From contig CAYLPP010000003.1 in NCBI GenBank assembly GCA_964385615.1, positions 11,288 to 75,287 on the forward strand: DNA of 64,000 nucleotides. The letters are read 5' to 3'. A model generated the notes under the pieces. It did not search any database. It was not told the DNA's origin and worked only from the letters and a program-made list of their open reading frames with translations. The DNA is from an uncultured bacterium. Its GTDB lineage: Bacteria > Omnitrophota > Omnitrophia > Omnitrophales > Aquincolibacteriaceae. The position numbers and the translations under genes are program-made. Each line of letters starts with the position of its first letter. Within the stretch, counting starts at the first letter, position 1. This document shows, one piece after another, positions 25,723 to 56,753 of this stretch.

Positions 25723-25723
25723 T

Positions 25724-26722: not shown

Positions 26723-26730
26723 GGATCTCC

Positions 26731-26880
26731 TTGGCAATTCATCCCTCAATTTAAGGGAATCGGCTGGCTGCACCGTTTCCGGTGAAGCCCCGTTCTGGGA
26801 GCCATAGCGTGCATGCTTTAGGCTATCAGAATCGGAGAATTCAAAATTAATATTGAAATTTATTATAAGTTAATTTTTTC
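26731..26880 (-). ncRNA. candidate Moco (molybdenum cofactor) riboswitch in the moaA leader
   Basis: About 150-nt leader upstream of the Moco operon. On the minus strand it carries GGGCTTCACCG-GAAA-CGGTGCAGCC, a 10-bp stem with one mismatch capped by a GNRA tetraloop, and a duplicated CCGATTC element. No consensus check was possible. Confidence 0.3.
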
Positions 26881-30032: not shown

Positions 30033-30461
30033 TCAAAAGGTTTTCTTTTTCGAATCCGACATCATTTGTTCAAGCGATGTCTTACTAAGCTCATTAATGA
30101 AATTTTGTTTCATTCTTTTCCAAACCGGATGAATGGGGCATGGGGACTTATCTTTACAGTGTGGAAGCCCCATCACACAACGATCATAAGCATGATCGCC
30201 ATCGATGATTCTTACGATCTGAAGAACCGTTATTACGCCCGGATCCGCTTTCAACCGATATCCTCCCCCGGGTCCTCTTACTGTTTTTAAAATGTCGCCG
30301 TGGACTAGGCGTTGGAATCCCTTGCGAGTAAAAGACTCAGGCACACCTGCCTCCCGGCAAGCGTCTTCCACGCGGAAGCCTTCTCCTTTTGCCGTTTCTA
30401 GACCACAAACTAATGCACGGAGGGTATATTCACAATTCTTAGAATAAAGAGAAAACATCAT
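30033..30461 (-). CDS. Rrf2 family transcriptional regulator (NsrR/IscR-like, three Cys)
   Basis: GPGGGYRL block plus C-x-C-x-C ligands (CVMGLPHCKDKSPC). It lies immediately downstream of nirK. Confidence 0.75.
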   Translation of the reverse strand: MMFSLYSKNCEYTLRALVCGLETAKGEGFRVEDACREAGVPESFTRKGFQRLVHGDILKTVRGPGGGYRLKADPGVITVLQIVRIIDGDHAYDRCVMGLPHCKDKSPCPIHPVWKRMKQNFINELSKTSLEQMMSDSKKKTF

Positions 30462-30473: not shown

Positions 30474-30499
30474 AATACTGGACTTTATTGTCCACTATT
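30474..30499. promoter_or_regulatory. 10-6-10 imperfect palindrome upstream of the Rrf2 gene
   Basis: AATACTGGAC-TTTATT-GTCCACTATT (one mismatch), 13 bp upstream of the start codon. Confidence 0.4.
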
Positions 30500-30605: not shown

Positions 30606-31649
30606 TCAGGGGTGGACTAAACAGCCTTTACACGGCGTAGCATCACCTTTTGCGACATAAATATCATGGCGGGGTTCTCCATCGACTTGTAAATAGCCGA
30701 CAGCTCCTTTTTCGATTCGGAAAATTGCATGGTCTACCAAAGTGTAAGTTCCCGGCACTTCTAATTGAAATTCAACAGCTGTAGCGCCGCCTGACGGCAC
30801 GAGGGTGGTTTGAATGCTATGCGCGGGAGGATCAACAAGATCTCCTTCTCGATAAACACTATCAAAAATTTCGCCGATCACATGAAACGATGAAATAAGG
30901 TTCGGCCCTGCATTGCCAAAATAAATCCGGATGCGTTCACCGGTCTTGGCTTTAAGCGCTCCATCTCCAGTTAGCGAATTCATACGGCCGTTAAACACTA
31001 CGAACTTCGGATGCTCTTTAAGTCCTTCTTCATGGGAAAAATCCAAAACATCCTGCCCTTGCGCTGGTTCTTTTGCATAGATTTCGCTTTGCAGAACATA
31101 AAACTCACGATCCACTTTAGGAAGACCTTTTTCGGGCTCAACCAAAATTAATCCATACATTCCATTAGCAATGTGGTCCATGACAGGCGGCGCAGCACAG
31201 TGATAAATGAAAAGGCCGGGATGAAGCAATTTGAACCAAGCCATTCCTTCCATATCGGTAGTTGCGGTAGTCACAGGTGCGCCGCCGCCCGGACCTGTGA
31301 CTGCATGAAAATCCACATTATGCGGCATACCGCTCTTATCTCTATTGGTTAATTCCACCTGAAGCGTATCCCCTACTCTTGCGCGGATAAATGGACCTGG
31401 TACATGCCCATTAAAGGTCCAAAATTTATATTTGGTGCCGCCATTAATCGGTTTAATTTCTGAAGTCGCGTCTAAATGAACGCGAACAATAGCCGGCTTC
31501 TTTCGTGCAATTGGAGGAGGAACTTCCGGCGCAAAAGTAAGGATCGCATCTTCCCTAAGAGGTGCGTGGGAAGCTCTCGAATCTGAGGGCATAAAAATAA
31601 AATTGAACAAAACGATTGAAACAATGGCAACTGCTTTATTTTTTGTCAT
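30606..31649 (-). CDS. nirK: copper-containing nitrite reductase NirK
   Basis: HNVDFHAVTG and YHCAAPPVMDHIANGM type-1/type-2 Cu ligand blocks, with a signal peptide from M at 31649. Confidence 0.8.
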   Translation of the reverse strand: MTKNKAVAIVSIVLFNFIFMPSDSRASHAPLREDAILTFAPEVPPPIARKKPAIVRVHLDATSEIKPINGGTKYKFWTFNGHVPGPFIRARVGDTLQVELTNRDKSGMPHNVDFHAVTGPGGGAPVTTATTDMEGMAWFKLLHPGLFIYHCAAPPVMDHIANGMYGLILVEPEKGLPKVDREFYVLQSEIYAKEPAQGQDVLDFSHEEGLKEHPKFVVFNGRMNSLTGDGALKAKTGERIRIYFGNAGPNLISSFHVIGEIFDSVYREGDLVDPPAHSIQTTLVPSGGATAVEFQLEVPGTYTLVDHAIFRIEKGAVGYLQVDGEPRHDIYVAKGDATPCKGCLVHP

Positions 31650-31681
31650 TATATTTTTCTTGTGATTCCATATCAGCATTT

Positions 31682-33016
31682 TCAATTTTGCCGAGGGGAT
31701 TTACCGGATTTCAAATCCGCAACTCTTTTTTTGGCTTCCTCATGGCACCGCTCATACTCTTCCGCATCAATAGTTCTAAATAAGGGAGCCGAAACGTGGA
31801 AGAACCAGCAAGCGGCAGCGGCCAGCCAAAAGAGAGCTGAAACAGCTAAAAACGAAAAGTAAAAAGATGGGAAAAAAACTGAAACGACTCTGAGGACAAG
31901 CGTCGCACCCAGGGCAACCGCAATGGCGCTAAGCGGCCAGGCGTTTTTCTTTAAAGCAGACGACATTCCTCCATGGCTAAAGATCACCATAATCGAAACT
32001 GCAAAGGTCATGAGCGCATAGCCTCCGATAAAAATGACATGCAGCATGGCCGTACGGAAAGAAGGAAAAAACGCAAGCAGCCAATGGCCTAAAAAAACCA
32101 TCCAAAAAGAGGCCCAAAGCAACCGCACAAAAGGATCTTGAACAAGAGGTTTGGGATTGATCGTCCGCGTTGGAATATAAATCGCGCTTACAATAAATGC
32201 CCGCAAGAAGTAAGCTAATTTTGAAAAATCTAATCCTTCTAAAATAAAGCTAAAAAGCAATAGCCCGCCAAGAAACAAATAAGTGAAGACTTTTTTGACG
32301 CGAATGCGCTTCTGGTCCTTTTGATCTCCTACGATAAACTCCGGCTTATAAACACCCATGAGCCTGGGACCAAGGAACGCTCCTACTCCGAGCACGAGTG
32401 ACAAAAGAAACCCCTGGTCCATAAATAATTTTCCTATTTTCAAAAATACGGGCGTCGAAATTACTTTGTGAGTCTCGCGCAAAACCATAAGGGTTCCCGC
32501 AATACCCTGCGCGAGAGCAATCGGAATCCAAATAAACTCAACTGGCGGTTGAACAGAATGGTCTTTTCTCTTAAATCTTTTGAAAGCAAAAATTGCGAGA
32601 GAAATCATCCAGCCCAAAAAACACAATCTCCCCAGCGTCCAATGATTCGAGAGATAAAAAATAGGAATTAAGCCTATCCAGACCAAAAAAATTAAAAGCT
32701 CCACAGCAGATGCTGGAGGAGCTGAAGCAAAGCGAGGCATTGCAGTCAAAAGAAAACCGAGGACAAAAGAACCCATATAGACTTGAATCTGGATCGAGGC
32801 ATGGAAAAGAGCGGAATAATGCGGAATCCACCCCATTGCATAAAAAAACCAGTGGCTAATCCCGAGGACTCCGCCAAGAACCGCGAGAGGAAAAAAAATC
32901 CGGTAAGGTTCTTCTGCGATCCGTTTAAGAATACCGAAACTTTTATTTTGCAATTTTTTTAAAACCGCCTTGGACAAGATAATGGAGCATGCCTGCAAAA
33001 GTAACCGTCCATACAA
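31682..33016 (-). CDS. nnrS: NnrS family heme-copper membrane protein
   Basis: EEPYRIFFPLAVL...HWFFYA N-terminal signature and 12 TM helices. It is a paralog of 53016-54326. Confidence 0.65.
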   Translation of the reverse strand: MYGRLLLQACSIILSKAVLKKLQNKSFGILKRIAEEPYRIFFPLAVLGGVLGISHWFFYAMGWIPHYSALFHASIQIQVYMGSFVLGFLLTAMPRFASAPPASAVELLIFLVWIGLIPIFYLSNHWTLGRLCFLGWMISLAIFAFKRFKRKDHSVQPPVEFIWIPIALAQGIAGTLMVLRETHKVISTPVFLKIGKLFMDQGFLLSLVLGVGAFLGPRLMGVYKPEFIVGDQKDQKRIRVKKVFTYLFLGGLLLFSFILEGLDFSKLAYFLRAFIVSAIYIPTRTINPKPLVQDPFVRLLWASFWMVFLGHWLLAFFPSFRTAMLHVIFIGGYALMTFAVSIMVIFSHGGMSSALKKNAWPLSAIAVALGATLVLRVVSVFFPSFYFSFLAVSALFWLAAAACWFFHVSAPLFRTIDAEEYERCHEEAKKRVADLKSGKSPRQN

Positions 33017-33983
33017 AAATCGGAAGATAAACGAAATAACGCGGAATGAACATGAGGAAATCGAGCTGGAAAACTTCGGCGAGCTTGTAGGTGCAGGTCA
33101 CATACATTCCGAGCGGAAAAACAATGCCCCAATATTGCGGATCATAAGTAAGCGGTTCTTTTTTATAGCCATGCCGCCAGAAACCTAAAATGAAAAGCGT
33201 AGGAATCCACCAAGTGCATGCGGACCAGAAAAAAAGCGTAAATCCTTTTAAGAAAGGTTCAAGCTGTTGCAGAAAATTCCAGTGGCCGGAATTTTCTACC
33301 AGCCTTACTCCGGCAAGCGTGGTAATTGCAACGGCTCCCATGTTGATCCAATAAGGCGGCGTTAGTGCTTTTGCTTCCACATTCACAAACATAAGGCGGT
33401 AAAAAATAATTGAAATAATAAGCAGATAAAGCATGCTTCCTAACAAGTACAGGCATAGACACAGAAAAAGGACAGGAGCAGCGCTCACCGAAAGAACCGT
33501 TTTTGTAAGCAAAGCTCCAAGAACGGAAAGAGATTGAGTGGCTACAATCGCCAAAAGCCAGGCTCCATTAATTCCCGTTTCAAGAGTGGGTTTGGGCGAA
33601 CGCACTGTGGCAGCCGTAAAAAAGACATACATTACAATAAACCAAAGCGCGAGGCTTATTTGCCATAACACTAAAGCAACTTTGGCGGCAGAAGCCAAGA
33701 GCAAAAATTGAACGCCAAGAATACAGGAGCCGGCAACAAGTGTAAAAAATCCCGGACCTCGGGCATGATCCGTTAAATCGCGGAAGAGACGTTGAGGGAA
33801 AAGGGTCAGCCTCAAAATCGTTAAAACAGCGAGAATGAGATAATTGACCACATTAATTTTAAAAAGTAGATAGGCAATAAAATTAATTTTTAACAGAAAA
33901 GTGGCTATGGAAACAATGCCAGTAGCCATCACTAAAGCAAAATAACCGGGGAAAAGATTTTCAATAAATTTGGGCTTAGTCAA
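32943..33983 (-). CDS. TDT (TehA/SLAC1/Mae1) family anion transporter
   Basis: Ten-TM protein of about 346 aa consistent with the TDT family (recalled). Confidence 0.45.
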   Translation of the reverse strand: MTKPKFIENLFPGYFALVMATGIVSIATFLLKINFIAYLLFKINVVNYLILAVLTILRLTLFPQRLFRDLTDHARGPGFFTLVAGSCILGVQFLLLASAAKVALVLWQISLALWFIVMYVFFTAATVRSPKPTLETGINGAWLLAIVATQSLSVLGALLTKTVLSVSAAPVLFLCLCLYLLGSMLYLLIISIIFYRLMFVNVEAKALTPPYWINMGAVAITTLAGVRLVENSGHWNFLQQLEPFLKGFTLFFWSACTWWIPTLFILGFWRHGYKKEPLTYDPQYWGIVFPLGMYVTCTYKLAEVFQLDFLMFIPRYFVYLPIFVWTVTFAGMLHYLVQGGFKKIAK

Positions 33984-33990
33984 AGGGATT

Positions 33991-34239
33991 TTACCTCGAG
34001 TCTTTCTCGCTTGAAGTTACATTTAATGCCGTCGTGAAAGCCATAAAACCACAGCATAGAAGTGCAATACCGCTTAAGATTATTGCGCCTATCAGGTGGG
34101 ATGTTTTCCCTTCCAGATAGGATTCCATCGCTGAAAATAAAATCCATATTTGAGTGAAAATGGCCCCCAAACTCAGAATGAGACAGACATTTTCAATCAT
34201 CTGAGCGTTTTCGTTGTACCTATCTCTAAATTTCATCAA
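33991..34239 (-). CDS. small membrane protein, hypothetical
   Basis: 82 aa with two TM helices, in an operon with the Rieske gene. Confidence 0.35.
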   Translation of the reverse strand: MMKFRDRYNENAQMIENVCLILSLGAIFTQIWILFSAMESYLEGKTSHLIGAIILSGIALLCCGFMAFTTALNVTSSEKDSR

Positions 34240-34781
34240 TCCCCAATTTGTCCTTCGATTCCAGCAAAGAAAACACCTTCCTTTCGGACATCAAGTTTGA
34301 TGCGAGGAAGCGGCCGTTCAGGAGGCCCATAAAGCACATCGCCTGTTTTCACATTAAAAGCACCGTGGTGGCAAGGGCATACGAGTTTCGATTCGCTTTT
34401 TTTCCAAATCACCGGGCATTGCAAATGAGTGCATTTTTGAGAATATGCCACGTATTCATTTTCAGAAAGACGCACCAAGATCACTGGCCCTTTGTCTTCG
34501 GGCAGACTAAAAACGTACGAGCCGCCGACTTCAATATCTTCCGAGCCTAAAATACGGAATTCTTTGATCGGATGGATGCGATGCCACAAACTTTTTATGA
34601 AAACTCCAATCGTCCCGGTGAAAAGGCCTAACGAGACAAGGAAGAGAAAACGGATAAAATCTCTTCGTGCGATATGCGTATCCTGAGCGACATCAACTGG
34701 AAAATCATCTGCCCACTTCGGATGATTTTTTTGCTTTATATCGTTTGATGCATTTTTTTCATCGCCCATTAAATCACCCAT
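34236..34781 (-). CDS. Rieske [2Fe-2S] protein, membrane-anchored
   Basis: CTHLQCPV...CPCHHGAF (CxH...CxxH) plus an RRDFIRFL Tat-like/TM anchor. Confidence 0.8.
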
Positions 34782-35392
34782 GGATCAGATTCTCCCAAAT
34801 CGTTGTGACTTATAAAGTCCAAAACATCGAGAGAAATTTCCGAATCTTCTTCTGCGGTCATGATGTAAACCTTGGTTGTGATCTTTTGGCGGCCAAACCA
34901 GAATTGATTCGTCGGTTTATTTTTGCGCGTCTTTTCAATTTCGGAACGCGGCCCGAAATAAAGCGCCTGCGAAGGACATACGGTTGCGCACATGGGCTTT
35001 TGTCCGATTGATGTGCGGTCATAACACATGTCGCATTTCAACATTTGCGCGGATTCCTCATATATATGAGGAACTCCAAAAGGACAAGCGACCTGGCAAT
35101 TGGAGCAGCCAATACAGCGAGGATTTAAAGAGGACTGTACGACACCGTCTTCCGTACGTTTGATTGCATCAGCGGGACATACAGCCGCACAAGACGGAAG
35201 ATCGCAATGCATGCAAATAGTAGGCGCTGTCTTTACGGATTGCGACCGGTCAAAGGTATCCAAATGAATCATCGGAACTCCGCGATGAGTCGCGCATTCC
35301 GCACAAGCCGCCATGCAGGCTTTACAACCGATACAGCGCTGTGGATCTACAAAAAAATCCATTTCTTCGTGGAGCGGATCACGAATGGGCAT
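34769..35392 (-). CDS. 4x[4Fe-4S] ferredoxin subunit (DmsB/NrfC/HybA-like)
   Basis: Four CxxCxxCxxxCP-type motifs. Confidence 0.8.
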
Positions 35393-37565
35393 TTTCTACC
35401 TTCTCGATTTTTACAGCACTAAATTTAAATTCGGGAATCTTTGAAAGCGGGTCTAGCGCCCTTTGAGTCAACCGGTTGGCTGATTTCTCGCCCGGCCAAT
35501 GATAAGGAATGAAAATAGTATCAGGCCGGATGGTCTTAACGACTTTTGCTTTTAGCGTGATGCTTCCTCTTCGTGAAGTGATCTTCACAAGCTCGCTTTC
35601 CCGAATCTTATATTTTTGAGCAAGCTGCGGATGCAATTCGACATAGGGTTCCGGACATTGCTCTGTCAGAAAGCCAATACGACGGGTCTGTGTTCCAGAT
35701 AAATACTGGAAAATCACACGGCCGGTTGTGAGGCATATCGGGTATTCTTCATTGATCTCATCTGCGGAAGGCCGGTATTCCACAGGATTGAAACGGGCCT
35801 TCCCATCGGGATGAGCAAACTTGCCGTTTTCAAATAACCGCGGTGTCCCAGGATGATCGAGTGTGGGACAGGGCCAAAAAATCCCCATATTCTTTTCAAT
35901 TTTTTCATAAGTAATTCCATAATAATTAACGGGACTGCCATTTGAAGCAACGCGCAGTTCATTGAAAATGTCTTCCGCGCATGAATAATTGAAATATTTC
36001 TTTTTATCAAGTCTCTCCGCTAAATCTAAAAAAATATGCCAATCGATTTTCGCTTCTCCCGGCGCTTTAACCGCCTGACGGATTCTGACGACTCTTCCCT
36101 CCGCAGTGGTGGCCGTACCTTCGTCTTCTTCGTGCAAAGAACCGGGAAGAATAATGTCTGCGTATTGAGCGGTTTCACTCATGAAGAAATCAATAGCGAC
36201 ATAAAATTCAAGCTTCTTAAGCGCTTCTTCGGTAAATTGAGTATCGGGAAGGCTTACAAGCGGATTGAAGCATATCGAAAGTAATCCTTTAATTTCTCCG
36301 GCATGAATGGCATTCATGATTTCCTGCGCGGACAAGCCCTTGCCTGGCAGGTCTTTTTCATCAATGCCCCAAATATCCGCGATATATTTTCGGTGTTCAG
36401 GATTGGTAATATCGCGATTTCCCGGAAGCTGATCGCATTTATGGCCGTGTTCTCGTCCGCCTTGGCCGTTGCCTTGTCCTGTAATCGTTCCATAACCACA
36501 GCCCGGCTTTCCGATCCGCCCACTTGCAAGCACAAGATTAATACAGGATAGAACGTTATCCACGCCCTTCGTGTGATGCTCAATGCCACGGGCATGAAGC
36601 AACATGCTACGCTTTGCTTCTCCCCACCATTCTGCTGCAATCCGAATATTTTTTGCTGGCACTCCCGTTATCTTCTCGCATTTTTCAGGCGTATAAGAGG
36701 AAACAGCTTTTTTTACTTCTTCAAAACCTACGGTGTGATTACGAATAAATTCCTCATCCACTTTTCCATTCTGGATCATCAGATTGAGCATCGTATTAAA
36801 GAGATGCGCATCCGTTCCAGGACGGACAGGAAGAATTAAATCAGCAGTGCGGGCAATCGGGGTAATGCGAGGATCTACAATAATGAGTTTTGCGCCTCGG
36901 TCCCGCGCGCGCCATATGTAATCTGTCGTGATCGGAGAGCATTCCGAAACGTTCGTTCCTGCGCATAAAATCAAATCCGTTTCCAGAATATCTGCCCAGG
37001 AATTTGCGGCGCGGTCAACGCCAAATGCCTTTTTATTGCCGGTGCCGGCAGAAACCATGCAAAGCCGGCCGTTATAATCGAGATTCTTGGTTTGCAATGC
37101 GACTCGCGCCCACTTACCGATTAAGTAAGACTTTTCATTCGTAAGCGAAACACCCGATAAAACTGCGAAACTGTCTTTGCCATATTGCTGTTGGATTTTT
37201 TTAATTGCGGTAATGACCCGATCATAAGCGTTATCCCAGCTTATGCGCTCATAGCCAATGCCCGGCTTATTTTCTAAAGGATAAAGCAGACGATCCGGAT
37301 GATTGCCCTGCATGTAACGCTTCACGCCTTTAGGGCATAACTTCCCTTCATTAAATGGGAAATCTTCCCAGGGATCAAAGCCAATGACCTGATTGTTTTT
37401 TACTTTGAGTTCAATCCCGCATCCCTGTCCACAAAAGCAACAATGAGTTTTAACACGAGCATCCGGCTCTTCTCCCGCGCTATCCCAGCCTCCAGGCGGC
37501 TCAAAATTGAGATGCGGACCGAACTGCTCAAAAATCTTTTCTTTTGAGATAGGTAAATTAGCCAT
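35379..37565 (-). CDS. molybdopterin oxidoreductase catalytic subunit, Nas/Nap/NarB-type (nitrate reductase-like), cytoplasmic
   Basis: N-terminal [10 protein letters not shown]...KLCPKG [4Fe-4S] site. The [10 protein letters not shown] block has the CM.SA-type Mo-ligand Cys context of Nap/Nas enzymes. No Tat signal. 728 aa. Confidence 0.7.
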
Positions 37566-38646
37566 GATGCGTTTCCTGTTTCATGTGTTCACGGTCAAAC
37601 TGTCCAGCAAGATCTCGGTGCTGAATCCACATTAAAAGCCGTCTCCGGCACAAAGGACATAAATCCTGCACACTTGGAGATTCCTTCGATTGATACTGAA
37701 AACCGATTTCCGCAAGCGACTCTTTAACATCCTTCGCTTGAATCGTGCTAGTAAAAGGTGCAGAGCATTTGGCGCAGGCAACCGTTTCACCCAATTTCTT
37801 TTGCTGAATATAAACCGACGCACCAAGCTGAGAGCCTCTTTGAAAAATATGAAAAAATTTTCCAAAGGGTAAATAAACTAAGAAAATAACAACCGTAAAA
37901 CAGTGAACCGTAGACAGAACCCGGTAATGCTGGCCTCCGAGAAATCGATTGCTAAAGGTGAGAAACAATCCCGTAATGGCTACCGCGAAGAGAATAAGAA
38001 GCGGAAGCATATCATGAATAAAGTTTTGATTCGCGACATTATCCGGATGCGTGATACGCCGTGTAAAGGCCATCACAGTTCCAAGAATAACCAGAACTGA
38101 AGATAAGTTGAGGGCGTTGAAGAAGAAAAAGCCAATCAGATCGTCAGGATGAAATTGAATCTGTGGGAAGCCAAATGCATAAACTTGGTAAAGTTCTGGA
38201 TGATGGGGAACCGTTTCAAAATGAAGCCAGCCGAAAACAAGAGGAAATGTCACAGCAAATGCCAGCATCGTTCCCCATGCCAGAGTGAAATGCATCAGCC
38301 AGCGGTAGAAACCTCGGTTTTGAATAAAACGCTGTAAAATGACTTGTTGGAAGAACGTTTTGAAGACCGCGGCAAGCTGTTCCAACACATGCGGTGCAAA
38401 TAAAAGCGTAGCGCTTCGCTTCCATAATCTGCGCGTGGGAGGCCGGTCTAACCAAACTGTGTAGCGATAAACAACTCCCATGAGAGCAAATAGCGTCGCG
38501 AATAAATAAGGAACGAGCGCCGCGTCAAAATAAAGCAACCTTCGAGATCCAACAAGAACCAAGACGCTTAGAAGTCCGCTCGCTAAAATTCCGTTGAGAA
38601 GTCCCCTCTTATGAAGTTTTACGCTCTGTAATCTCATGCTTCCCAA
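37558..38646 (-). CDS. NarI/DsrM/HdrE-like di-heme cytochrome b membrane subunit with a C-terminal Cys-rich tail
   Basis: Five or more TM helices, a [13 protein letters not shown] block resembling the NarI-family PFSKL.H motif, and C-terminal CAKC...CPLC. Confidence 0.5.
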
Positions 38647-38652
38647 TATGCT

Positions 38653-39069
38653 TTAGGCCGCGGCAATATTCAAGCTTTTTTGATGCCGAACATGATGAGA
38701 ATGCGGCGGTAGTTTTTCTTTTAAATCGTCGGTGATTTGACTTTCTATAGCCTGAGCTTCGAAATCCTCGAAGTCTTCATGGAATTTCTTTTTTACACCC
38801 ATCTTCGTTAATTCATAATGGAATGTGGGAGCAAGCCCTTGTTGCTGCAAACACGCCTTAACGCAGGCAAGCGGACAGCCATCAATCCCAATAATGACTT
38901 CAGCGTTTTTTGCTTTTTGCACGAGCGGGGATACGCTGCCTCCCACTCCCGCGATACAGGACATTTCAGCAATTCCTCTGCGGTCCAGTCCAATAGCAAT
39001 GCGATTCGCCATTTGCGCCGCAGAAGAACATCCCGAACAAGAATAGACAAGAACTTTGCTATTTTTCAT
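38653..39069 (-). CDS. DGC domain metal-binding protein
   Basis: CSGCSS and IGIDGCPLAC blocks typical of the DGC domain. The start ATG overlaps the upstream stop as ATGA. Confidence 0.55.
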   Translation of the reverse strand: MKNSKVLVYSCSGCSSAAQMANRIAIGLDRRGIAEMSCIAGVGGSVSPLVQKAKNAEVIIGIDGCPLACVKACLQQQGLAPTFHYELTKMGVKKKFHEDFEDFEAQAIESQITDDLKEKLPPHSHHVRHQKSLNIAAA

Positions 39070-39548
39070 CTGTGATGTGCGCCGCAACAAGTCTCATACC
39101 TCTCCGCCGGTATGGTTTCCATCGCAAGAAAAATCTGTGCGGCTTCCCTTTCTGTAATCAATTGATCGATCGCAGGGTAAAGAACCTGCTCTTCTTTATG
39201 ATTATGGGCCTCTAAGATTTCAACGAGCATTTCTTCATCGTCATCACTAGATGGATCGGCTTTTCTGACCTTTTCATGAATACGGTCGAGCAATGCCCCA
39301 ATGCGGCGGTGTTCTTCACGCATCACAAATGTAGGACCGCCTTGGCTGGTGCCGGACTTTTTTTCAAAAAGAGGAAAGAGAACGTCCTCTTCCCAAACAA
39401 TATGCCGTTTGAGCCCTTTAAAGAAGACCTTAAAATGCTGTTTTGCTTCGGGGAAGGATTCTCTTTTAAGCTCTTGAAAACTTGCGAAGGCCGCATCAAG
39501 ACGATTATGATCTGCTTCAAAATATTGAGTAACGATATTTTTTACCAT
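39066..39548 (-). CDS. hemerythrin HHE cation-binding domain protein (NO-stress-type di-iron protein)
   Basis: H..EE..LFP repeats. It is about 70% identical to 50833-51315 and directly downstream of an Rrf2 gene. Confidence 0.7.
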   Translation of the reverse strand: MVKNIVTQYFEADHNRLDAAFASFQELKRESFPEAKQHFKVFFKGLKRHIVWEEDVLFPLFEKKSGTSQGGPTFVMREEHRRIGALLDRIHEKVRKADPSSDDDEEMLVEILEAHNHKEEQVLYPAIDQLITEREAAQIFLAMETIPAERYETCCGAHHR

Positions 39549-39551: not shown

Positions 39552-39986
39552 TTAATCCCCTTTATGAATTTTATGCAGAGAATGCTTACCGTTCTTTCTT
39601 AAATCCGACAGAGTTGTGGTTTTCAGAAGAGTTATGTACCGGCCCGAAATGTCAGCCCATTTATGATGCAATGTGCATGGATTGCTGTCCGAGCAAGAAG
39701 CTCTGCCCATAATACAGCGCTCCCACTTTCCCACCTGCTCAACAGGCTCGATAATGTCATATAAAGTGACTTTTTCAGGCTCCTTTACTAATCGAAAACC
39801 GCCGCCTAATCCCTTTTGAGATTCCACAATGCCCGCTCTGCAAAGAGACTGAAGCAGCTTACTCAGATAATTTGCCGGCGCCTTTAATTGCTTGGCAATC
39901 TGTATCGCTCCAGCGTATTTGCTTTCCGGTAGCTCGGAGAGTGCCATCAAAGCCCGAATCGCAAGCGTTCCTGTTTTACTAATCAT
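39552..39986 (-). CDS. Rrf2 family transcriptional regulator (three Cys)
   Basis: GLGGGFRL block plus CIMGRASCSDSNPC. Confidence 0.75.
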   Translation of the reverse strand: MISKTGTLAIRALMALSELPESKYAGAIQIAKQLKAPANYLSKLLQSLCRAGIVESQKGLGGGFRLVKEPEKVTLYDIIEPVEQVGKWERCIMGRASCSDSNPCTLHHKWADISGRYITLLKTTTLSDLRKNGKHSLHKIHKGD

Positions 39987-39994
39987 TTTAGGAT

Positions 39995-40016
39995 AATAGC
40001 ATGTCTATATGCTATT
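39995..40016. promoter_or_regulatory. 8-6-8 perfect palindrome upstream of the Rrf2/hemerythrin operon
   Basis: AATAGCAT-GTCTAT-ATGCTATT, 9 bp upstream of the Rrf2 start. Confidence 0.45.
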
Positions 40017-40119
40017 TAAAAGAGTTTTTTGCTTTCTTTTTAGATGATCCTTCTAGGCAAACGAGTAGGAAGAGCGCAGCATTAAATGTCCCTGCGTGCG
40101 ATCAGGAAATGACTCTGTC

Positions 40120-40755: not shown

Positions 40756-40794
40756 GTTTTTGATACGCACTGCTATAGAGTGCGTATCAAAAAC
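40756..40794. promoter_or_regulatory. 16-bp perfect inverted repeat between copy B and the divergent XRE gene (candidate operator)
   Basis: GTTTTTGATACGCACT-GCTATAG-AGTGCGTATCAAAAAC. Confidence 0.45.
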
Positions 40795-50118: not shown

Positions 50119-50829
50119 TTAGAGGCTGTCGCTTGCCCCCAGCGAGTATTCCAAAATGGCTTCGGCATGGATCTGCGTTGTGTCGTAAAGAGGCCGCAAA
50201 CTATCCTCGGGTTGGATCAAAAGAGATAATTCTGTACATCCGAGGATCGTCGCCTCAACGCCTTTTTTTTCCAAGTCCGAAATGATTGTTTTTGCCGCTT
50301 CCCGGGACTCCGGACGAATGACACCATGAGAAAGCTCTTCCCAAATAATACGGTCCAGCTCACGGCGCTGGAGCTCATCCGGCACAAGCGTTTCGATGCC
50401 GCATGAATTGAAATGTTTTTGAAAAAACCCGAATTCCATAGTGAGTTTTGTCCCAAGGAGAGCCACTTTTCTGCGGCCATCCCGGGTAAGAGCCTCAGCG
50501 GTCGCGTCCATAATTGTTAAAATTTTAAGCGGACTTTTATCACGGATCTTGTCGTAAGCATTATGCGGAGTGTTGGCAAGAATTGCCGCAAAGTCAGCCC
50601 CACCTCTCTTTAGACGATCCAAAGATTCCAAAAGAGTGACGGCAACACCTTCCCAATCATTTTCTTCGAAAAGCTTAATGAGTATCTGAAGATTTAAACT
50701 TTGAATCGTGATCTCCGGAAAATTCAATTTACCGAAGCGCCGGTTGTATTCACGACAAAGAAATTGGTAGTAGTGCACCGTCGATTCGGGACTGAGACCG
50801 CCGATTAGACCGATTCGTTTCATAACCAC
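50119..50829 (-). CDS. aspartate/glutamate racemase family protein
   Basis: IGLIGGLSPEST N-terminus and a C-terminal ILGCTE block. Confidence 0.75.
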   Translation of the reverse strand: MVMKRIGLIGGLSPESTVHYYQFLCREYNRRFGKLNFPEITIQSLNLQILIKLFEENDWEGVAVTLLESLDRLKRGGADFAAILANTPHNAYDKIRDKSPLKILTIMDATAEALTRDGRRKVALLGTKLTMEFGFFQKHFNSCGIETLVPDELQRRELDRIIWEELSHGVIRPESREAAKTIISDLEKKGVEATILGCTELSLLIQPEDSLRPLYDTTQIHAEAILEYSLGASDSL

Positions 50830-51717: not shown

Positions 51718-51780
51718 GTCTCGCCTCCTTGGTAAACCTACGACACGTTTACAGTCAATAAAACCTTGCATTTTTTAAAT

Positions 51781-51797
51781 ATGTATTTAAAATACAT
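51781..51797. promoter_or_regulatory. NsrR-box-like palindrome in the divergent promoter (cupin/hemerythrin <-> nsrR-AOX-nnrS-norZ)
   Basis: ATGTATTT-A-AAATACAT, matching the remembered NsrR consensus AAGATGyATTTTAAATrCATCTT. It is 44 bp upstream of the Rrf2 GTG start. Confidence 0.6.
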
Positions 51798-51840
51798 GTA
51801 TAAGCTATCACGCTTTACGGCCGCTCACAAGGAGATATTC

Positions 51841-52269
51841 GTGCGAATCACTTATTTTTCGGACTATTCATTAAGGGTGCTGATTTACTTAGGAGTTAAA
51901 GACGAAAAGGCATCGATTGCAGAAATTAGCAGAGCTTTCGCAATTTCTAAAAACCACTTGATGAAAGCAGTTCATAATCTGGTTCAGTTAGGTTATGTCA
52001 ATTCAATGCGTGGAAAGTCAGGCGGAATTGTTTTGGCGCAATCACCCCAATCAATCAATTTGGGTGAGATCATTCAAAAACTTGAGCCCGATATGGATAT
52101 TGTTGAGTGCTTTAACCGAAAAAATGATTCTTGCGCCATCGCGATCACCTGCCGGCTCAAAGGAGCTTTTCAGGAAGCAACTATGGCCTTTTTGAAAACC
52201 TTAAATAAATATTCGCTTGCCGATCTCATACAAAACAAAACGGAACTCAAACGTTTGATTATGCAATAA
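51841..52269 (+). CDS. nsrR: Rrf2 family NO-sensing repressor (NsrR-like)
   Basis: GTG start, then VRITYFSDYSLRVLIYLG... with three Cys (CFNRKNDSCAIAITC) and an NsrR-box immediately upstream. The track ORF begins at an upstream ATG at 51766 that lies over the box. Confidence 0.7.
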   Translation: MRITYFSDYSLRVLIYLGVKDEKASIAEISRAFAISKNHLMKAVHNLVQLGYVNSMRGKSGGIVLAQSPQSINLGEIIQKLEPDMDIVECFNRKNDSCAIAITCRLKGAFQEATMAFLKTLNKYSLADLIQNKTELKRLIMQ

Positions 52270-52309
52270 TCATCTTGAGCGCAAACACCCATTATGATGA
52301 AGGATTTAC

Positions 52310-53044
52310 ATGGATCTCATAAACTTAAGTAAGATGAAGTCGAGTGAAGAGCTTAAAAGAGAGCAGCAGGTAACGCTTGAAACTCCCAGAAGGCGTTATG
52401 GACTCCTCGCCCGCCTTCTTTTCCTCTTCATGGATCTTTTCTATGGAAAGAAGCGCACATTTTCAAAATTCAAAGTCCTGGAAGTGATTGCCCGCGTCCC
52501 CTATCAGGCATGGGAACACGTGGCCTATATCGCCATGACGCATACCTATGCAATGCCGGATTTTGCCCGCCGGATTTTTGATTTCCTAAAAGAAGCTCGC
52601 GAACAGCAGGATAATGAGCAATGGCATCTGCTCATTCTCGAAGAATTAACTCAGAAAGAGAACGTGCCGGAGAACTTTTTCCGCTTTAGAATCCTTCCGC
52701 AGTTTATGGCGTTTTTCTATTACCATGTTAGCTGGCTTCTCTATGTCATGAAGCCTTCTTGGAGTTATGGGCTCAATGCTGACTTTGAAGATCACGCCGA
52801 ACACGAGTACATGTTGTTCGTCCAGGAGAACACTGAATTTGAGAATAAACCCTTTACAAGCGACTTTAGAGAAGATTATGGTTTTTACGCGAATCTCGGC
52901 GACCTTTTTCGCCGCATCGGCGTCGATGAACGCATGCATAAGATAGAAAGCTTAGAGAGAGCAACCCATGCCCGATTCTCTCTGCCTCACAATGTCGGCA
53001 AAGAAGAACCAACGGATGGCGGTAAACTTCATGAACGTCCTTAA
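52310..53044 (+). CDS. alternative oxidase-like di-iron carboxylate protein (AOX/PTOX family)
   Basis: Four E / ExxH blocks (LEVIARVP, ILEELTQKE, DFEDHAEHEY, DERMHKIE) resembling the AOX LET.AGVP / LEEA.NE / EEEA.H.Y / DEA.HR motifs. Confidence 0.45.
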   Translation: MDLINLSKMKSSEELKREQQVTLETPRRRYGLLARLLFLFMDLFYGKKRTFSKFKVLEVIARVPYQAWEHVAYIAMTHTYAMPDFARRIFDFLKEAREQQDNEQWHLLILEELTQKENVPENFFRFRILPQFMAFFYYHVSWLLYVMKPSWSYGLNADFEDHAEHEYMLFVQENTEFENKPFTSDFREDYGFYANLGDLFRRIGVDERMHKIESLERATHARFSLPHNVGKEEPTDGGKLHERP

Positions 53045-54326
53045 TATTTCCCGTTGGTTCAAATCGGCAGCCGAAGAACCCTATAGAATTTTCTTTCCTC
53101 TCGGCATCCTGTGGGGAATAGTCGGAATAAGTCATTGGTTCTTTTATGCCCTCAAATGGATTCCCACCTATTCCATGCAGCTTCACTCGGCAATCCAAAT
53201 ATCGGGTTACATGGGTTGTTTCATTGCCGGGTTTCTTTTGACAGCGATGCCCCGGTTTGCTTCAGCGCCGTCCGCTTCTCTGCAAGAATTTTTAACTTTT
53301 TTAGTTTTAGTCAATGCGGCGCCGGTCCTTTACCTACTGCATGAATGGGCCTATGCGCGGTTTTGTTTTGCAACCTGGCTTCTTATGCTCATTTTTTTTG
53401 CCGCCCGTCGATTTCTGAAGGAAAAAAGTGTCGAAATCGAATCGCCGGTCGAGTTCGTATGGATTCCCGCGGCCCTTTTAAATGGCTTATTGGGCGTACT
53501 CTTAATGACAGGAGCCGACGCTCATCTGCTCTCGGGTGCGGCTGGTAAAATAGGAAAACTTTTATCGGAGCAGGGCTTTCTTCTCAGCATTGTTCTTGGT
53601 GTCGGCAGTTTTCTAGGACCGCGGCTCATGGGCACTTTTCGCCCTTCCTTTCAAACCATTCGAGACATAAAAATCCGGAAATCTCAAAGAAGAAATGCTC
53701 TTTACTACCACGCAGCTGCGGCTTTTTGTCTTTTACTGACTTTTTTTCTTGAAGGAACAGGCCGCCTAGGCACCGCTTTCTTTGCGCGCGCATTCATTAT
53801 CGGTTTGATTTATGTTCATTCGCGCACCCTCGTTTTAAAGCCGCCTGCAAAAGATCAATTTGTGAAATTGCTTTGTATTTCGTTTTGGATGATTTTTATC
53901 GGGCATCTCAGCCTCATCTTTTTTCCGGCTTATCGAGCCACTTTGCTGCACGTCACTTTCCTGGGAGGTTATTCTTTAATGACATTTGCCATTGCGACGA
54001 TGGTTATTTTTAGCCATGGCGGACAAATGGCGGATTTAAAACAAGCCATTTGGCAGCTTCCTGCGCTTGGAGCCCTTCTCGCCTTAGCGCTTTGTTTAAG
54101 AATTGCGGCTATTTTCTTTCCGGAATCTTTTTTTACTTTTTTGGGGGCAGCATCTGCATGCTGGCTCTTTGCCGCAGCTTTGTGGCTCATTTTTATATTC
54201 AAACCCATTTTTAAGTTTCCTTCTTCAAAGGAAGAGTTCGAACGCTGCCACGAAGAGGCTAAAGAACGGGTTGCCGCCTTGAGATCCGGGCAGCCGCTCA
54301 ATCAAATAAAACCACAGGAGAGTTAA
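53016..54326 (+). CDS. nnrS: NnrS family protein (second paralog)
   Basis: EEPYRIFFPLGILWGIVGISHWFFYA, TAMPRFASAP and a C-terminal ERCHEEAKERVAALRSGQ block shared with 31682-33016. The start was chosen at an internal ATG; the track ORF starts at 52968. Confidence 0.65.
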   Translation: MAVNFMNVLNISRWFKSAAEEPYRIFFPLGILWGIVGISHWFFYALKWIPTYSMQLHSAIQISGYMGCFIAGFLLTAMPRFASAPSASLQEFLTFLVLVNAAPVLYLLHEWAYARFCFATWLLMLIFFAARRFLKEKSVEIESPVEFVWIPAALLNGLLGVLLMTGADAHLLSGAAGKIGKLLSEQGFLLSIVLGVGSFLGPRLMGTFRPSFQTIRDIKIRKSQRRNALYYHAAAAFCLLLTFFLEGTGRLGTAFFARAFIIGLIYVHSRTLVLKPPAKDQFVKLLCISFWMIFIGHLSLIFFPAYRATLLHVTFLGGYSLMTFAIATMVIFSHGGQMADLKQAIWQLPALGALLALALCLRIAAIFFPESFFTFLGAASACWLFAAALWLIFIFKPIFKFPSSKEEFERCHEEAKERVAALRSGQPLNQIKPQES

Positions 54327-56600
54327 ATGAATTACAAAAGATTATGGCTATGTTTCGGTGCAGTGATCATCTTTTCCTTTTCCATACTCGGATACTTCGG
54401 GCGTGAAATTTACCGTCAAGTTCCGCCTATCCCCAAACAAGTCACCACCGCAAGCGGACATTTGCTCTTTACCGGCGAGGATATACAAGACGGCCAGAAT
54501 GTTTGGCAATCAATCGGCGGGCAGGAATTGGGATCCATCTGGGGACATGGTGCTTACGTTGCTCCCGATTGGTCCGCTGACTGGCTGCATCGTGAGGCCC
54601 AATATCTTGTCAATACATGGGCTCAAAAAGATTTTGGGAAAGATTTTGAGGCACTCGACACAGAAAAACAAGCCATGTTGAAAGCCCGTTTGGAAAAAGA
54701 ACTCCGCACCAATACCTATGATCCTAAAACCGGACAACTGACGGTTTCTGAGATAAGAGCTGAGGCCATTGATGCGGTCAGCCGCCATTACGCGTCTCTT
54801 TTCATGAATGATCCCGCGCTTGAAAAAACACGCGAAGCTTACGCCATGGCTCGAAATACGATTAAAGACCCGGCTCGAATGCCCAAACTTAACTCTTTTT
54901 TCTTTTGGACGGCATGGGCATGCGGAACCACCCGTCCCGGTACCGATGTTACGTACACAAATAACTGGCCTGCCGATGAACTGGTCGGTAATCGTCCCAC
55001 ACCGTCCCTTATCCTCTGGACCGGATTTAGCGTCATTCTTCTGTTGGCGGGAATCGCGCTTCTTGCGTCCTACTATGCTGCAAATCGGGACGAGCCGCAT
55101 GCTCAAAGGGAAATCCCCGAAAATGATCCCCTGCTGGGTCTCGCTCCTACGCCCTCAATGAAAGCCACGCTTAAATACTTTTGGGTTGTCATGGCCTTAA
55201 TTGTTGTGCAAGTTCTCTTAGGTGCCATCACTGCACACTATGGTGTCGAGGGAAGCGGATTTTACGGGATTCCCCTTGCAAAGTGGCTGCCCTATTCGGT
55301 CACGAGAACCTGGCACATTCAACTTGCGATTTTTTGGATTGCGACCTCTTGGCTTGCCACAGGTCTTTTTATTGCTCCCGCCGTTTCAGGACATGAACCT
55401 AAATTTCAACGCTTGGGAGTCAACTTTCTATTTCTGTCGCTTCTTGTAATTGTCGTCGGCTCTCTTGCCGGTGAATGGTTCGGCGTCATGCAAAAGCTTG
55501 GATTTGTCTCCAATTTTTGGTTTGGTCATCAGGGATATGAATATGTAGATCTTGGCCGATTCTGGCAGGCTTTTCTTATTGTCGGACTTTTTTTATGGCT
55601 CGGTTTGATGGTCCGTGCCATTTGGCCAGCCCTCCAAAGAAAAAGCGAAAGCAGACATCTGCTTTTTCTTTTTTTGATTTCCTCAGCCGCCATCGCTCTT
55701 TTCTACGGAGCAGGACTTATGTGGGGGCACCGCACCAATCTTGCGATCGCTGAATATTGGCGCTGGTGGGTCGTTCATCTCTGGGTGGAAGGATTCTTTG
55801 AAGTCTTCGCAACCGTGGTCATTGCCTTTTTATTTGTGCGAATGGGACTTCTCGGTGTAAAAATCGCGACCGCAACCGTTCTCTTTTCGACAAATGTTTT
55901 TCTTACGGGTGGAATTATCGGAACCTTTCATCACCTTTATTTTACGGGAACCCCCATCGCAGTACTTGCCCTGGGCGCTACCTTTAGTGGCTTGGAAGTG
56001 GTCCCTCTTATTTTAATCGGGTTTGAGGCTTACCATAATCTTCGCTTATCGCGAGCACGGCCATGGGTTCAGGCTTATAAATGGCCGATCTATTGTTTCA
56101 TCGCCGTCTCTTTTTGGAACCTGGTCGGCGCTGGCCTTTTTGGCTTTTTAATCAACCCGCCGATTGCACTTTATTATATGCAGGGTCTCAACACCACGGC
56201 CGTTCATGGTCATACCGCTTTGTTCGGCGTTTATGGGATGCTCGGCATCGGCCTAATGCTCTTTGTTTTAAAAGGATTAGCGGGCCATAAACCATGGAAA
56301 GAAGGCACTCTTCGTTTTGCATTCTGGTCGATCAATATCGGTCTCGCGTTAATGGTTCTTCTGAGTTTGCTGCCCATCGGACTCGCTCAAACGTTTGCGA
56401 GTGTAAAGTATGGATTATGGTATGCCCGCTCATCGGAGTTTATGCAGAATCCCTGGCTGCATAACATTCGCTGGATGCGTATGATCGGCGATACTCTTTT
56501 TGCCCTGGGGACGCTTGCGCTGGGATGGTTCGTTGTAGGGTTAAAAACCGGCTGGTCCTTTAAAAATCAAGAAAACGCAGTTAATTCTAAGGGCTACTAA
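54327..56600 (+). CDS. norZ: quinol-dependent nitric oxide reductase (qNor/NorZ large subunit)
   Basis: 757 aa with the N-terminal WGHGAYVAPDWSADWLHRE block and 14 TM helices of a heme-copper oxidase core. Confidence 0.8.
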   Translation: MNYKRLWLCFGAVIIFSFSILGYFGREIYRQVPPIPKQVTTASGHLLFTGEDIQDGQNVWQSIGGQELGSIWGHGAYVAPDWSADWLHREAQYLVNTWAQKDFGKDFEALDTEKQAMLKARLEKELRTNTYDPKTGQLTVSEIRAEAIDAVSRHYASLFMNDPALEKTREAYAMARNTIKDPARMPKLNSFFFWTAWACGTTRPGTDVTYTNNWPADELVGNRPTPSLILWTGFSVILLLAGIALLASYYAANRDEPHAQREIPENDPLLGLAPTPSMKATLKYFWVVMALIVVQVLLGAITAHYGVEGSGFYGIPLAKWLPYSVTRTWHIQLAIFWIATSWLATGLFIAPAVSGHEPKFQRLGVNFLFLSLLVIVVGSLAGEWFGVMQKLGFVSNFWFGHQGYEYVDLGRFWQAFLIVGLFLWLGLMVRAIWPALQRKSESRHLLFLFLISSAAIALFYGAGLMWGHRTNLAIAEYWRWWVVHLWVEGFFEVFATVVIAFLFVRMGLLGVKIATATVLFSTNVFLTGGIIGTFHHLYFTGTPIAVLALGATFSGLEVVPLILIGFEAYHNLRLSRARPWVQAYKWPIYCFIAVSFWNLVGAGLFGFLINPPIALYYMQGLNTTAVHGHTALFGVYGMLGIGLMLFVLKGLAGHKPWKEGTLRFAFWSINIGLALMVLLSLLPIGLAQTFASVKYGLWYARSSEFMQNPWLHNIRWMRMIGDTLFALGTLALGWFVVGLKTGWSFKNQENAVNSKGY

Positions 56601-56753
56601 ATTGATTGATATCCTGCGTCTCATTCTATGAATGGGGCGCAGGATAAGTAACTCTTACTTCAAACTTAAAGTTAAAGCTGCAAAGATTATTTCCAGACTA
56701 AACACAACATCTTTTTAAATGATTCATTTTATGATAATATTTTTCTCTAAATT

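Follow-up and report, generated by a model that had tools for sequence, protein, structure and literature searches.

The palindrome ATGTATTTAAAATACAT, at positions 51781-51797 of a 64-kb stretch of DNA from an uncultured bacterium (contig CAYLPP010000003.1; the whole stretch is referred to below as the window), was analyzed together with the genes around it. Judged by its sequence, this element is a canonical operator of NsrR, the nitric oxide (NO)-responsive repressor of the Rrf2 family. It is placed in a 123-bp gap, from which a cupin–hemerythrin gene pair is read leftward and an operon of nsrR, an alternative oxidase (AOX)-like gene, nnrS and the gene for a quinol-dependent NO reductase (qNor) is read rightward. 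We propose, with a probability of roughly 0.85, that NsrR binds this site, represses the rightward operon and probably also the leftward pair, and is released by NO. The original prediction had named the same palindrome as the NsrR operator of this divergent arrangement, and the coordinates, the consensus and a matrix score of 29.1 bits agree with it. Gene calls were supported by Pfam and NCBIfam models, with the curated model thresholds as cutoffs; what is reported here on sequences, families, ligand residues, the conservation of operators and gene neighborhoods was observed directly. The regulator encoded next to the palindrome is called Rrf2-1, and two further Rrf2 proteins of the window are called Rrf2-2 and Rrf2-3.

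The NsrR operator and its promoter

The box is an exact 8-1-8 palindrome with the half-sites ATGTAT-TTAAA-ATACAT and widens to an imperfect 14-1-14 inverted repeat (51775-51803). Rodionov et al. (2005, PMC1274295) published gATGyAT-N5-ATrCATc as the NsrR consensus. A comparison with curated NsrR motifs had been suggested in the original prediction, and the box matches this consensus at all twelve core positions (ATGyAT-N5-ATrCAT). For a quantitative assessment, a symmetrized position weight matrix (PWM) was derived from 32 sites upstream of nsrR in other genomes (consensus TAAGATGTATTTAAAATACATCTTA); scans for all three operators described in this work covered the 64-kb window. The box scored 29.1 bits, the next-best site 6.0, and the maxima over 200 shuffles had a mean of 9.9 and a largest value of 25.6. 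NsrR-type matches with ≤4 mismatches and ≤250 nt upstream were present in 35 of 80 loci encoding Rrf2-1 relatives (one genome per species, GTDB representatives), compared with 1% of 3118 background windows. Neither the mismatch search nor the PWM detected further NsrR boxes in the window; by this criterion, nirK and the genes for hemerythrin 2 and NnrS1, described below, are therefore not NsrR targets.

The putative sigma-70 promoter of the nsrR operon has its −10 hexamer, TAAAAT, at the exact center of the NsrR box. It was assigned from conservation across four loci, i.e., the intergenic region of the window and those of three orthologous NsrR loci read in detail (L001, L168 and L169). The promoter geometry is kept in all of them, with a 17-nt spacer in L001, identically in L168, and as TTGTGT-16-TATAAT in L169. 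A simple sigma-70 promoter scan did not list the nsrR promoter, whose −35 hexamer matches 3 of 6 positions. The natural reading is that NsrR would repress by occluding the −10 hexamer. Toward the left, the distance from the box to the cupin start codon is 46-75 nt in the four loci, and the leftward promoter must therefore overlap or abut the box.

The orthologous loci also define what the unit consists of. In L001, with a regulator 68% identical to that of the window, the order hemerythrin, cupin, box, nsrR, AOX-like gene, nnrS, qNor and CLC channel is the same as in the window. L168 (73%) has the hemerythrin gene, two small open reading frames (ORFs), cupin, box, nsrR and the AOX-like gene, with nothing further, and L169 (66%, Omnitrophota) has hemerythrin, cupin, box, nsrR and qNor. 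The comparison of these loci indicates a constant core of the divergent cupin–hemerythrin pair and nsrR, to which the AOX-like gene, nnrS and qNor are attached as interchangeable cargo. The box itself is identical or near-identical in all three, although the flanks diverge.

Palindromy by itself is not significant, as a shuffled 64-kb window is expected to hold about one perfect 8-1-8 palindrome and the actual window holds two; the other, CATGAATGGCATTCATG (36302-36318), lies within the gene of a molybdenum (Mo) subunit. This expectation and the overlap of the box with the −10-like TAAAAT would suit an explanation in which the palindrome is an AT-rich promoter element or a chance repeat, and Rrf2-1 a RirA- or IscR-like regulator of iron or Fe-S metabolism. 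Against the first half of this explanation, the palindrome fits the NsrR matrix by its sequence, beyond its symmetry, scoring above 200 of 200 shuffles; nsrR orthologues as far apart as those of Proteobacteria and Bacillota have the motif upstream, and the box stays invariant across orthologues despite the diverged flanks. We take the NsrR box to be beyond chance because the PWM match coincides with a position directly upstream of nsrR and with conservation in orthologous loci. The second half depends on the identity of the regulator.

Rrf2-1 as a predicted NsrR

Rrf2-1 carries an Rrf2 winged-helix domain (PF02082, residues 6-132; TIGR00738, 113.8 bits, cutoff 73.3). Its top NCBIfam model is NsrR (NF008240) with 128.9 bits, below the equivalog cutoff of 182, followed by RirA with 106.6 and IscR with 50 bits. 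The top PDB match is the NsrR of S. coelicolor, 5N07. Among 19 relatives, the residues D8, C90, C98 and C104 do not vary; in alignments they match the cluster ligands of 5N07 as well as E. coli NsrR. To E. coli NsrR, Rrf2-1 is 37-38% identical over the full length, compared with 25% identity to E. coli IscR. Its own clade comprises proteins 61-77% identical, with Candidatus Omnitrophota as the only named member; beyond this clade, the nearest relatives are the NsrR orthologues found in Bacillaceae, Marinobacter and Halomonas, at about 50% identity. By every available sequence criterion, Rrf2-1 is thus predicted to be an NO sensor, and by analogy with these proteins, its DNA binding would be controlled by an NO-labile Fe-S cluster.

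A regulator of iron or Fe-S metabolism could point to the 106.6 bits of the RirA model and to an NsrR score under the curated cutoff. NsrR nevertheless ranks ahead of RirA and IscR in all comparisons, and the neighbors of the box are NO-related throughout, with no gene for iron uptake or Fe-S assembly among them. We consider the combination of a fortuitous palindrome and an iron or Fe-S regulator highly improbable.

Binding to DNA, the type of cluster, the response to NO and the direction of control are inferred from these observations, as follows. Without NO, NsrR with a [4Fe-4S] cluster, a cluster type assumed from the family, would bind the box and block RNA polymerase, repressing its own operon of nsrR, the AOX-like di-iron quinol oxidase, NnrS and qNor. 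The same binding event would most likely also repress the divergent cupin–hemerythrin pair. Nitrosylation of the cluster by NO would cause NsrR to leave the DNA, inducing NO-consuming and NO-tolerant functions.

Several points weigh against this model. The box does not have the flanking G and C of the consensus (T...G in place of G...C). The sites of the PWM were chosen by their resemblance to the window palindrome, which makes the matrix test partly circular; the published consensus and the TAAG/CTTA flanks, which emerged in the matrix outside the seed, are independent of this circularity. The orthology of Rrf2-1 to NsrR is argued from the best hit and the context and not from a curated threshold; as NF008240 is largely proteobacterial, the sub-cutoff score probably weakens strict orthology rather than functional analogy. 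The leftward promoter of the cupin gene could not be located confidently in the intergenic region, and it is the geometry and the conserved divergence that suggest co-regulation of the cupin–hemerythrin pair. In addition, NO sensing in this organism is a prediction from sequence, and the NsrR of Thermus shows that members of the family can also activate (PMC5748679).

Genes flanking the NsrR box

The features of the NsrR unit, and those of the two other Rrf2 regulators, are collected in Table 1.

Table 1. Operators, promoter and genes of the three Rrf2 systems in the window.
Feature	Coordinates	Strand	Evidence and remarks
NsrR operator ATGTATTT-A-AAATACAT	51781..51797		exact sequence, PWM, conservation, published consensus
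Putative sigma-70 promoter of nsrR operon	51766..51793	+	TTGCAT (51766-51771), 16-nt spacer, TAAAAT (51788-51793)
nsrR (Rrf2-1), 142 aa	51841..52269	+	GTG start, seven bases after AAGGAG; PF02082, 121 bits
AOX-like membrane di-iron protein, 244 aa	52310..53044	+	PF01786, 36.9 bits, above cutoff of 22.7
nnrS paralogue 2 (NnrS2)	53031..54326 (ORF opens at 52968)	+	PF05940, 104 bits
qNor/NorZ, quinol-dependent NO reductase, 757 aa	54327..56600	+	PF22085 (NorB_cytochrome_c-like) and PF00115 (COX1)
Small cupin, 122 aa	51349..51717	-	Cupin_2, 25.7 bits, slightly under cutoff
Hemerythrin (HHE) di-iron protein 1, 160 aa	50833..51315	-	PF01814, 71.7 bits; downstream of cupin
Asp/Glu racemase	50119..50829	-	PF01177, TIGR00035; 3 nt after hemerythrin 1
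Rrf2-2 operator AAATAGCATATAGACATGCTATTA	39994..40017	-	palindrome AATAGCAT-N6-ATGCTATT at 39995-40016
Rrf2-2, 144 aa, Cys3His	39552..39986	-	PF02082, 104 bits; first gene of 11-gene unit
Remainder of Rrf2-2 unit	30606..39548	-	in order: hemerythrin 2, DGC-domain, QmoC/DsrM-like, NasC-like Mo, 4Fe-4S, Rieske, 82-aa ORF, SLAC1/TehA, NnrS1, NirK
Hemerythrin 2	39066..39548	-	68% identical to hemerythrin 1
NasC-like Mo subunit	35379..37565	-	859 bits, below cutoff; no Tat signal
82-aa predicted membrane ORF	33991..34239	-	between Rieske and SLAC1 genes; no family
NnrS1	31682..33016	-	50% identical to NnrS2
NirK	30606..31685	-	TIGR02376, 314.5 bits, above equivalog cutoff of 296.3
Rrf2-3 operator AATACTGGAC-TTTATT-GTCCACTATT	30474..30499		one arm mismatch
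Rrf2-3, 142 aa, Cys3His	30033..30461	-	PF02082, 91 bits; downstream of NirK and NnrS1
Mo-cofactor genes	22875..26773	-	MoaA 25724-26773, MoaC-MoCF fusion 24820-25722, MoeA 22875-24089

The AOX-like protein has a complete E/ExxH/E/ExxH di-iron ligand set with a Tyr seven residues past the third Glu, and the residues E58, E103-xx-H106, E160, Y167 and E207-xx-H210 show no variation among 25 family members. By comparison with the ligand numbering of the trypanosomal AOX, this is the di-iron pattern of the alternative oxidases. The family is small, with 751 cluster representatives (E≤1e-3) among 1.84 billion, and the protein matched no NCBIfam model and no PDB sequence. It is predicted to act as a di-iron quinol oxidase of the AOX/PTOX family. 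Its gene stands beside nsrR in L001, L168, L172 and L173 and accompanies nsrR in one of the 80 GTDB loci, which makes the pairing specific to this clade.

Translation of the next gene, nnrS, probably starts at ATG 53016 or 53031 and overlaps the end of the AOX-like gene; NnrS2 is 72% identical to its L001 orthologue. The qNor start abuts the nnrS stop. The product has the expected architecture of a single chain of about 750 aa, in which an N-terminal NorC-like domain without heme c is joined to a NorB core. It matches the qNOR of Alcaligenes xylosoxidans (6QQ5) with 876 bits over residues 3-741 and keeps HLWVEGFFEVF, GTFHHLYF and HGHTALFG. An NO-dismutase-like variant was considered and ruled out, since the catalytic His and Glu motifs all match the solved qNOR. 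The qNor stop is followed, after 10 nt, by an inverted repeat without a T-run, ATCCTGCG-N19-CGCAGGAT (56611-56645); the next gene, in the window and in L001, encodes a CLC chloride channel (56754-58604).

On the left side of the box, the cupin has an orthologue at the same position in L001, L168, L169 and L172-L174. Hemerythrin 1 matches the YtfE/RIC and DnrN models partially, in the HHE part only (residues 26-94, 45-50 bits, with cutoffs of 205-254), and the Pfam and NCBIfam models detected no ScdA_N domain in it. By these matches, it is RIC-related but no RIC equivalog. Both hemerythrins of the window end in ...ERYxTCCG(G/A)HH (50833-50862 and 39066-39095). The ScdA N-domain of RIC proteins carries a 'DfCCgG' motif (PMC5748679), which the CCG(G) tail resembles, and the tail could represent a minimal or permuted RIC N-domain.

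The racemase gene that follows is possibly co-transcribed with hemerythrin 1. It was found in L168 and is absent from L001 and L169; given this patchy distribution, it is no core member of the unit. Two DUF488 proteins are encoded nearby (43424-44029 and 49744-50097, minus strand). They represent one type each, 'active N3a' and 'inactive N3i', and the N3i protein is kept beside the hemerythrin and racemase genes in L001 and L168.

Comparison with known NsrR systems

All components of the NsrR operon have precedents in known NsrR regulons, whose published members include nnrS, dnrN/ytfE, norB and aox (PMC1274295). In common with the regulons of Proteobacteria and Bacillota (E. coli, Neisseria and B. 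subtilis; PMC1274295), the window has an Rrf2 repressor with three C-terminal Cys, an ATGyAT-N5-ATrCAT palindrome over the promoter, predicted autoregulation from a site upstream of nsrR, and nnrS, a di-iron protein of the dnrN/ytfE type and norB among the targets. It differs from them in that the named relatives of the host are Candidatus Omnitrophota, that all window targets are gathered at a single divergent promoter region, and that neither hmp nor hcp is encoded in the window. In addition, the hemerythrin has no YtfE/RIC ScdA N-domain and is paired with a small cupin, and Rrf2-1 is only distantly similar to E. coli NsrR, at the identity given above.

The alternative oxidase of Vibrio fischeri is reported by Dunn and colleagues (2010) to sustain NO-resistant respiration. 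Its aox gene is listed as a member of the NsrR regulon (PMC1274295), and the window would likewise place an AOX-family di-iron quinol oxidase under an NsrR box. By analogy, an NsrR-controlled AOX presumably keeps quinol oxidation running when NO poisons the heme-copper oxidases. The window protein is a distant AOX relative by its PF01786 score, and its gene is predicted to be co-transcribed with nsrR, nnrS and qNor, whereas aox of V. fischeri stands alone. The NsrR box and NsrR-controlled oxidases of the AOX type are thereby extended to a poorly studied uncultured lineage.

A further parallel is the nic cluster of Thermus thermophilus, in which NsrR occurs with NsrS (ScdA-like) and NsrT (cupin-2), embedded in nir and nor genes (PMC5748679). 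Both systems thus combine an NsrR-family regulator with a small cupin and a RIC-related protein; in Thermus, the latter two have been proposed to service Fe-S or iron centers (PMC5748679). In contrast, the Thermus operator, CTTGACCNNGGTCATGG, is unrelated, the Thermus NsrR acts both as activator and repressor, and the partner of the cupin is a 65-aa ScdA fragment in Thermus and a full HHE hemerythrin domain in the window.

Three Rrf2 regulators with separate operators

The presence of three Rrf2 paralogues in the window, and of a separate conserved palindrome as operator for each of them (51781-51797, 39995-40016 and 30474-30499), was confirmed, as were the positions of the second Rrf2 gene with its hemerythrin, 68% identical to the first, and of the third after nirK and nnrS. 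The recognition helices differ at most positions (SKNHLMKAVHNL in Rrf2-1, PANYLSKLLQSL in Rrf2-2 and PESFTRKGFQRL in Rrf2-3), consistent with three separate operators. In the subfamily assignment, Rrf2-1 proved to be of the NsrR type, with Asp and three Cys, while Rrf2-2 and Rrf2-3 are nearer to IscR and the SUF regulator. Whether all three are NO sensors can be answered in part: a sensor role is supported for Rrf2-1 by the sequence criteria, and Rrf2-2 probably senses NO or an N-oxide but is no NsrR.

The original prediction had further described the window as two duplicated NO-defense modules, each made of Rrf2, hemerythrin and NnrS, in which all Rrf2 proteins would be of the NsrR type with diverged DNA specificity. 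The paralogy of the hemerythrins (68% identity) and of the NnrS pair (50%) would suit such a duplication, as would the opening of each unit with an Rrf2 gene behind a palindrome. The regulators themselves do not fit: they are just 21-26% identical to one another, their best family models differ, and so do their ligand sets, with Asp and Cys3 in Rrf2-1 and Cys3His in the other two. In Planctomycetota, Zixibacteria, Bdellovibrionales and other groups, the Rrf2-2 family is found independently of NsrR, which makes it an old separate lineage and not a local duplicate. Moreover, the greater part of the second unit is taken up by a nitrate reductase complex and NirK, neither of which is encoded in the NsrR unit. 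We therefore regard duplicated modules as very doubtful, paralogy being confined to the hemerythrins and NnrS.

The Rrf2-2 family and its operator

The top NCBIfam models of Rrf2-2 are the SUF regulator and IscR, both well under cutoff; the IscR model TIGR02010 gives 61 bits for Rrf2-2 and 56 for Rrf2-3 against a cutoff of 207.55, placing both outside IscR. Rrf2-2 is about 25% identical to NsrR and IscR alike. Its C91, C98, C104 and H107 are invariant in 28 relatives, and Rrf2-2 and Rrf2-3 share the pattern C-X6-C-X5-C-X2-H, the His of which aligns with His107 of IscR. Many relatives at about 50% identity occur in Gemmataceae (Planctomycetota), Zixibacteria, Bdellovibrionales, the FCB group and unnamed metagenome-assembled genomes, where they are annotated merely as 'Rrf2 family protein' or 'IscR'; the family is also found among relatives of Omnitrophota. 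The top PDB match is 7ZPN, for which a literature search found no publication. In the same search, whose coverage was incomplete, we found no account of the Rrf2-2 family, its operator or a Cys3His Rrf2 beside qNor or hemerythrin.

Compared with E. coli IscR (Cys92/98/104 and His107, [2Fe-2S]), Rrf2-2 and Rrf2-3 are alike in their Cys3His set, their palindromic operators and their predicted autoregulation. They differ in the low identity, about 25%, in the C-X6-C spacing (C-X5-C in IscR), and in neighbors that are N-oxide genes and never isc or suf; the Rrf2-2 operator, TAATCGCAT-N6-ATGCGATTA, differs as well.

The family was analyzed in 80 metagenome loci, giving 76 non-redundant upstream regions and 59 non-redundant loci for the next gene. 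About 60 of the 76 upstream regions contain the sequence TAATnGyATAATGACATGyGATTA, a 9-6-9 palindrome. This first operator lies 8-25 nt before the start codon and overlaps a TATAAT, with TTGACA 17 nt upstream. In about 42 distinct loci, a second operator follows 410-525 nt past the regulator start, ahead of the next gene; this copy (L083-L161) usually has GATAAT instead of TATAAT. Only one further site of at least 20 bits was present in 368 kb, at −119 from the regulator in L159. Within the family, conservation is highest in the peptides of the recognition helix and the wing. The window operator scores 31.9 bits on the family PWM, with the next-best distinct window site at 11.1 and the largest shuffle maximum at 17.1, and the PWM detected no additional Rrf2-2 operators in the window; GCATATAGACATGCTATTATCCT of this operator is identical in L081. 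As hemerythrin 2 begins 3 nt after Rrf2-2, one operator suffices here.

Rrf2-2 is apparently leaderless, with a TATTAT ending 6 nt before the ATG and no Shine-Dalgarno sequence (39986-40020, minus strand). In L081, the promoter reads TTGAAA-16-TATTAT, followed by 7 nt to the ATG, and most other relatives have the −10 within the left half of the operator and a normal Shine-Dalgarno sequence.

The genes next to the regulator mostly point to NO handling. Among the 59 loci, the next gene encodes a hemerythrin in 28, NnrS in nine (seven of them fused to DUF1858), qNor/COX1 in eight, a NorC-like cytochrome c in four, ScdA_N in two and NirK in two, i.e., about 53 of 59 (~90%). In the Gemmataceae locus L084, the Rrf2-2 relative stands after narGHJ-like genes and before NnrS-DUF1858. 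From this neighborhood, Rrf2-2 is probably a sensor of NO or another N-oxide. We somewhat favor its being a repressor that answers an N-oxide-related signal, and are less confident of NO specifically. Weighing against a dedicated NO sensor, nitrite, O2 or the redox state would fit the neighborhood equally well as signals.

More broadly, we see about even odds that this family is a widespread, unannotated and NsrR-independent Fe-S sensor of NO or N-oxides, which in this genome would operate beside a true NsrR, each of them controlling one hemerythrin and one NnrS paralogue. With its sharply defined operator and NO-handling neighbors, the Rrf2-2 family is a more useful lead than the NsrR operon. 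Should a sensor role of the family be confirmed, N-oxide regulatory networks would gain a new class of regulator, and the combination of this operator with a Cys3His Rrf2 would provide a simple rule for predicting NO-responsive genes in many uncultured phyla.

The 11-gene unit and a proposed truncated denitrification chain

Rrf2-2 opens a contiguous unit of 11 genes (39986 to 30606), which overlap or abut throughout if the 82-aa membrane ORF is counted. This ORF is conserved in L081 (13721-13966), as is the gene order of the unit apart from nnrS-nirK. At the end of the unit, NirK has two cupredoxin domains and an N-terminal signal-like segment, in line with the equivalog-level assignment in Table 1.

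The unit includes a nitrate-reductase-like complex (34236-38646, minus strand) of a cytoplasmic NasC-like Mo subunit, a DmsB/HybA-like 4Fe-4S protein, a membrane-anchored Rieske protein (RRDFIRF) and a QmoC/DsrM-like membrane protein with a Cys-rich C-terminus. In L081, the membrane, Mo and FeS subunits are 87-93% identical and the Rieske protein 76%. The complex fits no Nar, Nap or Nas layout known to us. Genes for the Mo cofactor are located just past the denitrification genes, which fits a Mo-dependent nitrate reductase nearby.

The NasC-like reductase, NirK and qNor would together form a truncated denitrification chain, nitrate → nitrite → NO → N2O, and by gene content this reads better than duplicated defense; no nosZ was seen in the window. 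In such a chain, the 11-gene unit (NasC-like complex, anion channel, NnrS1 and NirK), behind Rrf2-2 with its own operator, would be the NO-producing arm. We lean toward the view that the NsrR unit is the NO-consuming and NO-tolerant arm of this chain and that Rrf2-2 gates the producing one.

The NsrR operon might instead be a stress-defense island of a non-denitrifying organism, in which qNor, AOX and NnrS detoxify exogenous NO only. qNor is indeed found in non-denitrifying pathogens, and L168 has nsrR-AOX without qNor; the NsrR regulons of non-denitrifiers are detoxification regulons (PMC1274295). The window, however, encodes an equivalog-level NirK, a NasC-like complex with a membrane quinol-interacting subunit, an anion channel and Mo-cofactor genes, and an endogenous NO source is therefore only 12-20 kb away. 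On this evidence, pure defense is an unlikely explanation, and the gene set indicates an organism able to reduce nitrate to N2O, relevant to N2O emission by Omnitrophota-like bacteria. If Rrf2-2 is a second Fe-S sensor of NO or N-oxides beside NsrR, the genome would lend itself naturally to the question of what use a cell has for two such sensors that differ in their ligand sets. It is a possibility that one of them gates NO production and the other NO removal.

In L081, the region ahead of the Rrf2-2 operon (1-7856) encodes a large serine recombinase, a nuclease/ATPase of the OLD family and an HsdM methylase. The gene found upstream of Rrf2-2 in the window (40120-40815) codes for 231 aa, with a weak match of the ParB-like type. 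L081, moreover, is without the nnrS-nirK pair, and it is possible that the nitrate/nitrite cluster is a mobile or modular one.

Rrf2-3

Rrf2-3 belongs to a lineage-restricted family, with about 27 relatives at E<1e-20 and Candidatus Omnitrophota as the only named one. Its C-X6-C-X5-C-X2-H residues align with C92/C98/C104/H107 of IscR. The block AATAGTGGAyAATAAAGTCCAnTATT is conserved upstream of the Rrf2-3 orthologues in L081, L165 and L166, with a TTGACA upstream in each, and Rrf2-3 would autoregulate from this third operator. The operator (ATAGTGGAC...GTCCAnTAT) is reminiscent of the type-1 site of IscR. A single one-mismatch match to its core at 21461-21476 lies inside a coding region and was treated as chance.

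The neighbors of Rrf2-3 vary: nirK in the window, SLAC1/HlyIII in L081, and a faint hemerythrin and radical-SAM genes in L166. In L167 (7001-14332), a 45%-identical relative is located directly upstream of nosZ-nosD-nosF-nosY-nosL, and the Rrf2-3 operator is absent from this locus. Downstream of Rrf2-3 in the window (28484-30014, minus strand) are genes for a 108-aa protein without a family (29688-30014) and a PAS-GGDEF diguanylate cyclase (28484-29392), a hint that c-di-GMP might be connected with the sensing of N-oxides or redox state.

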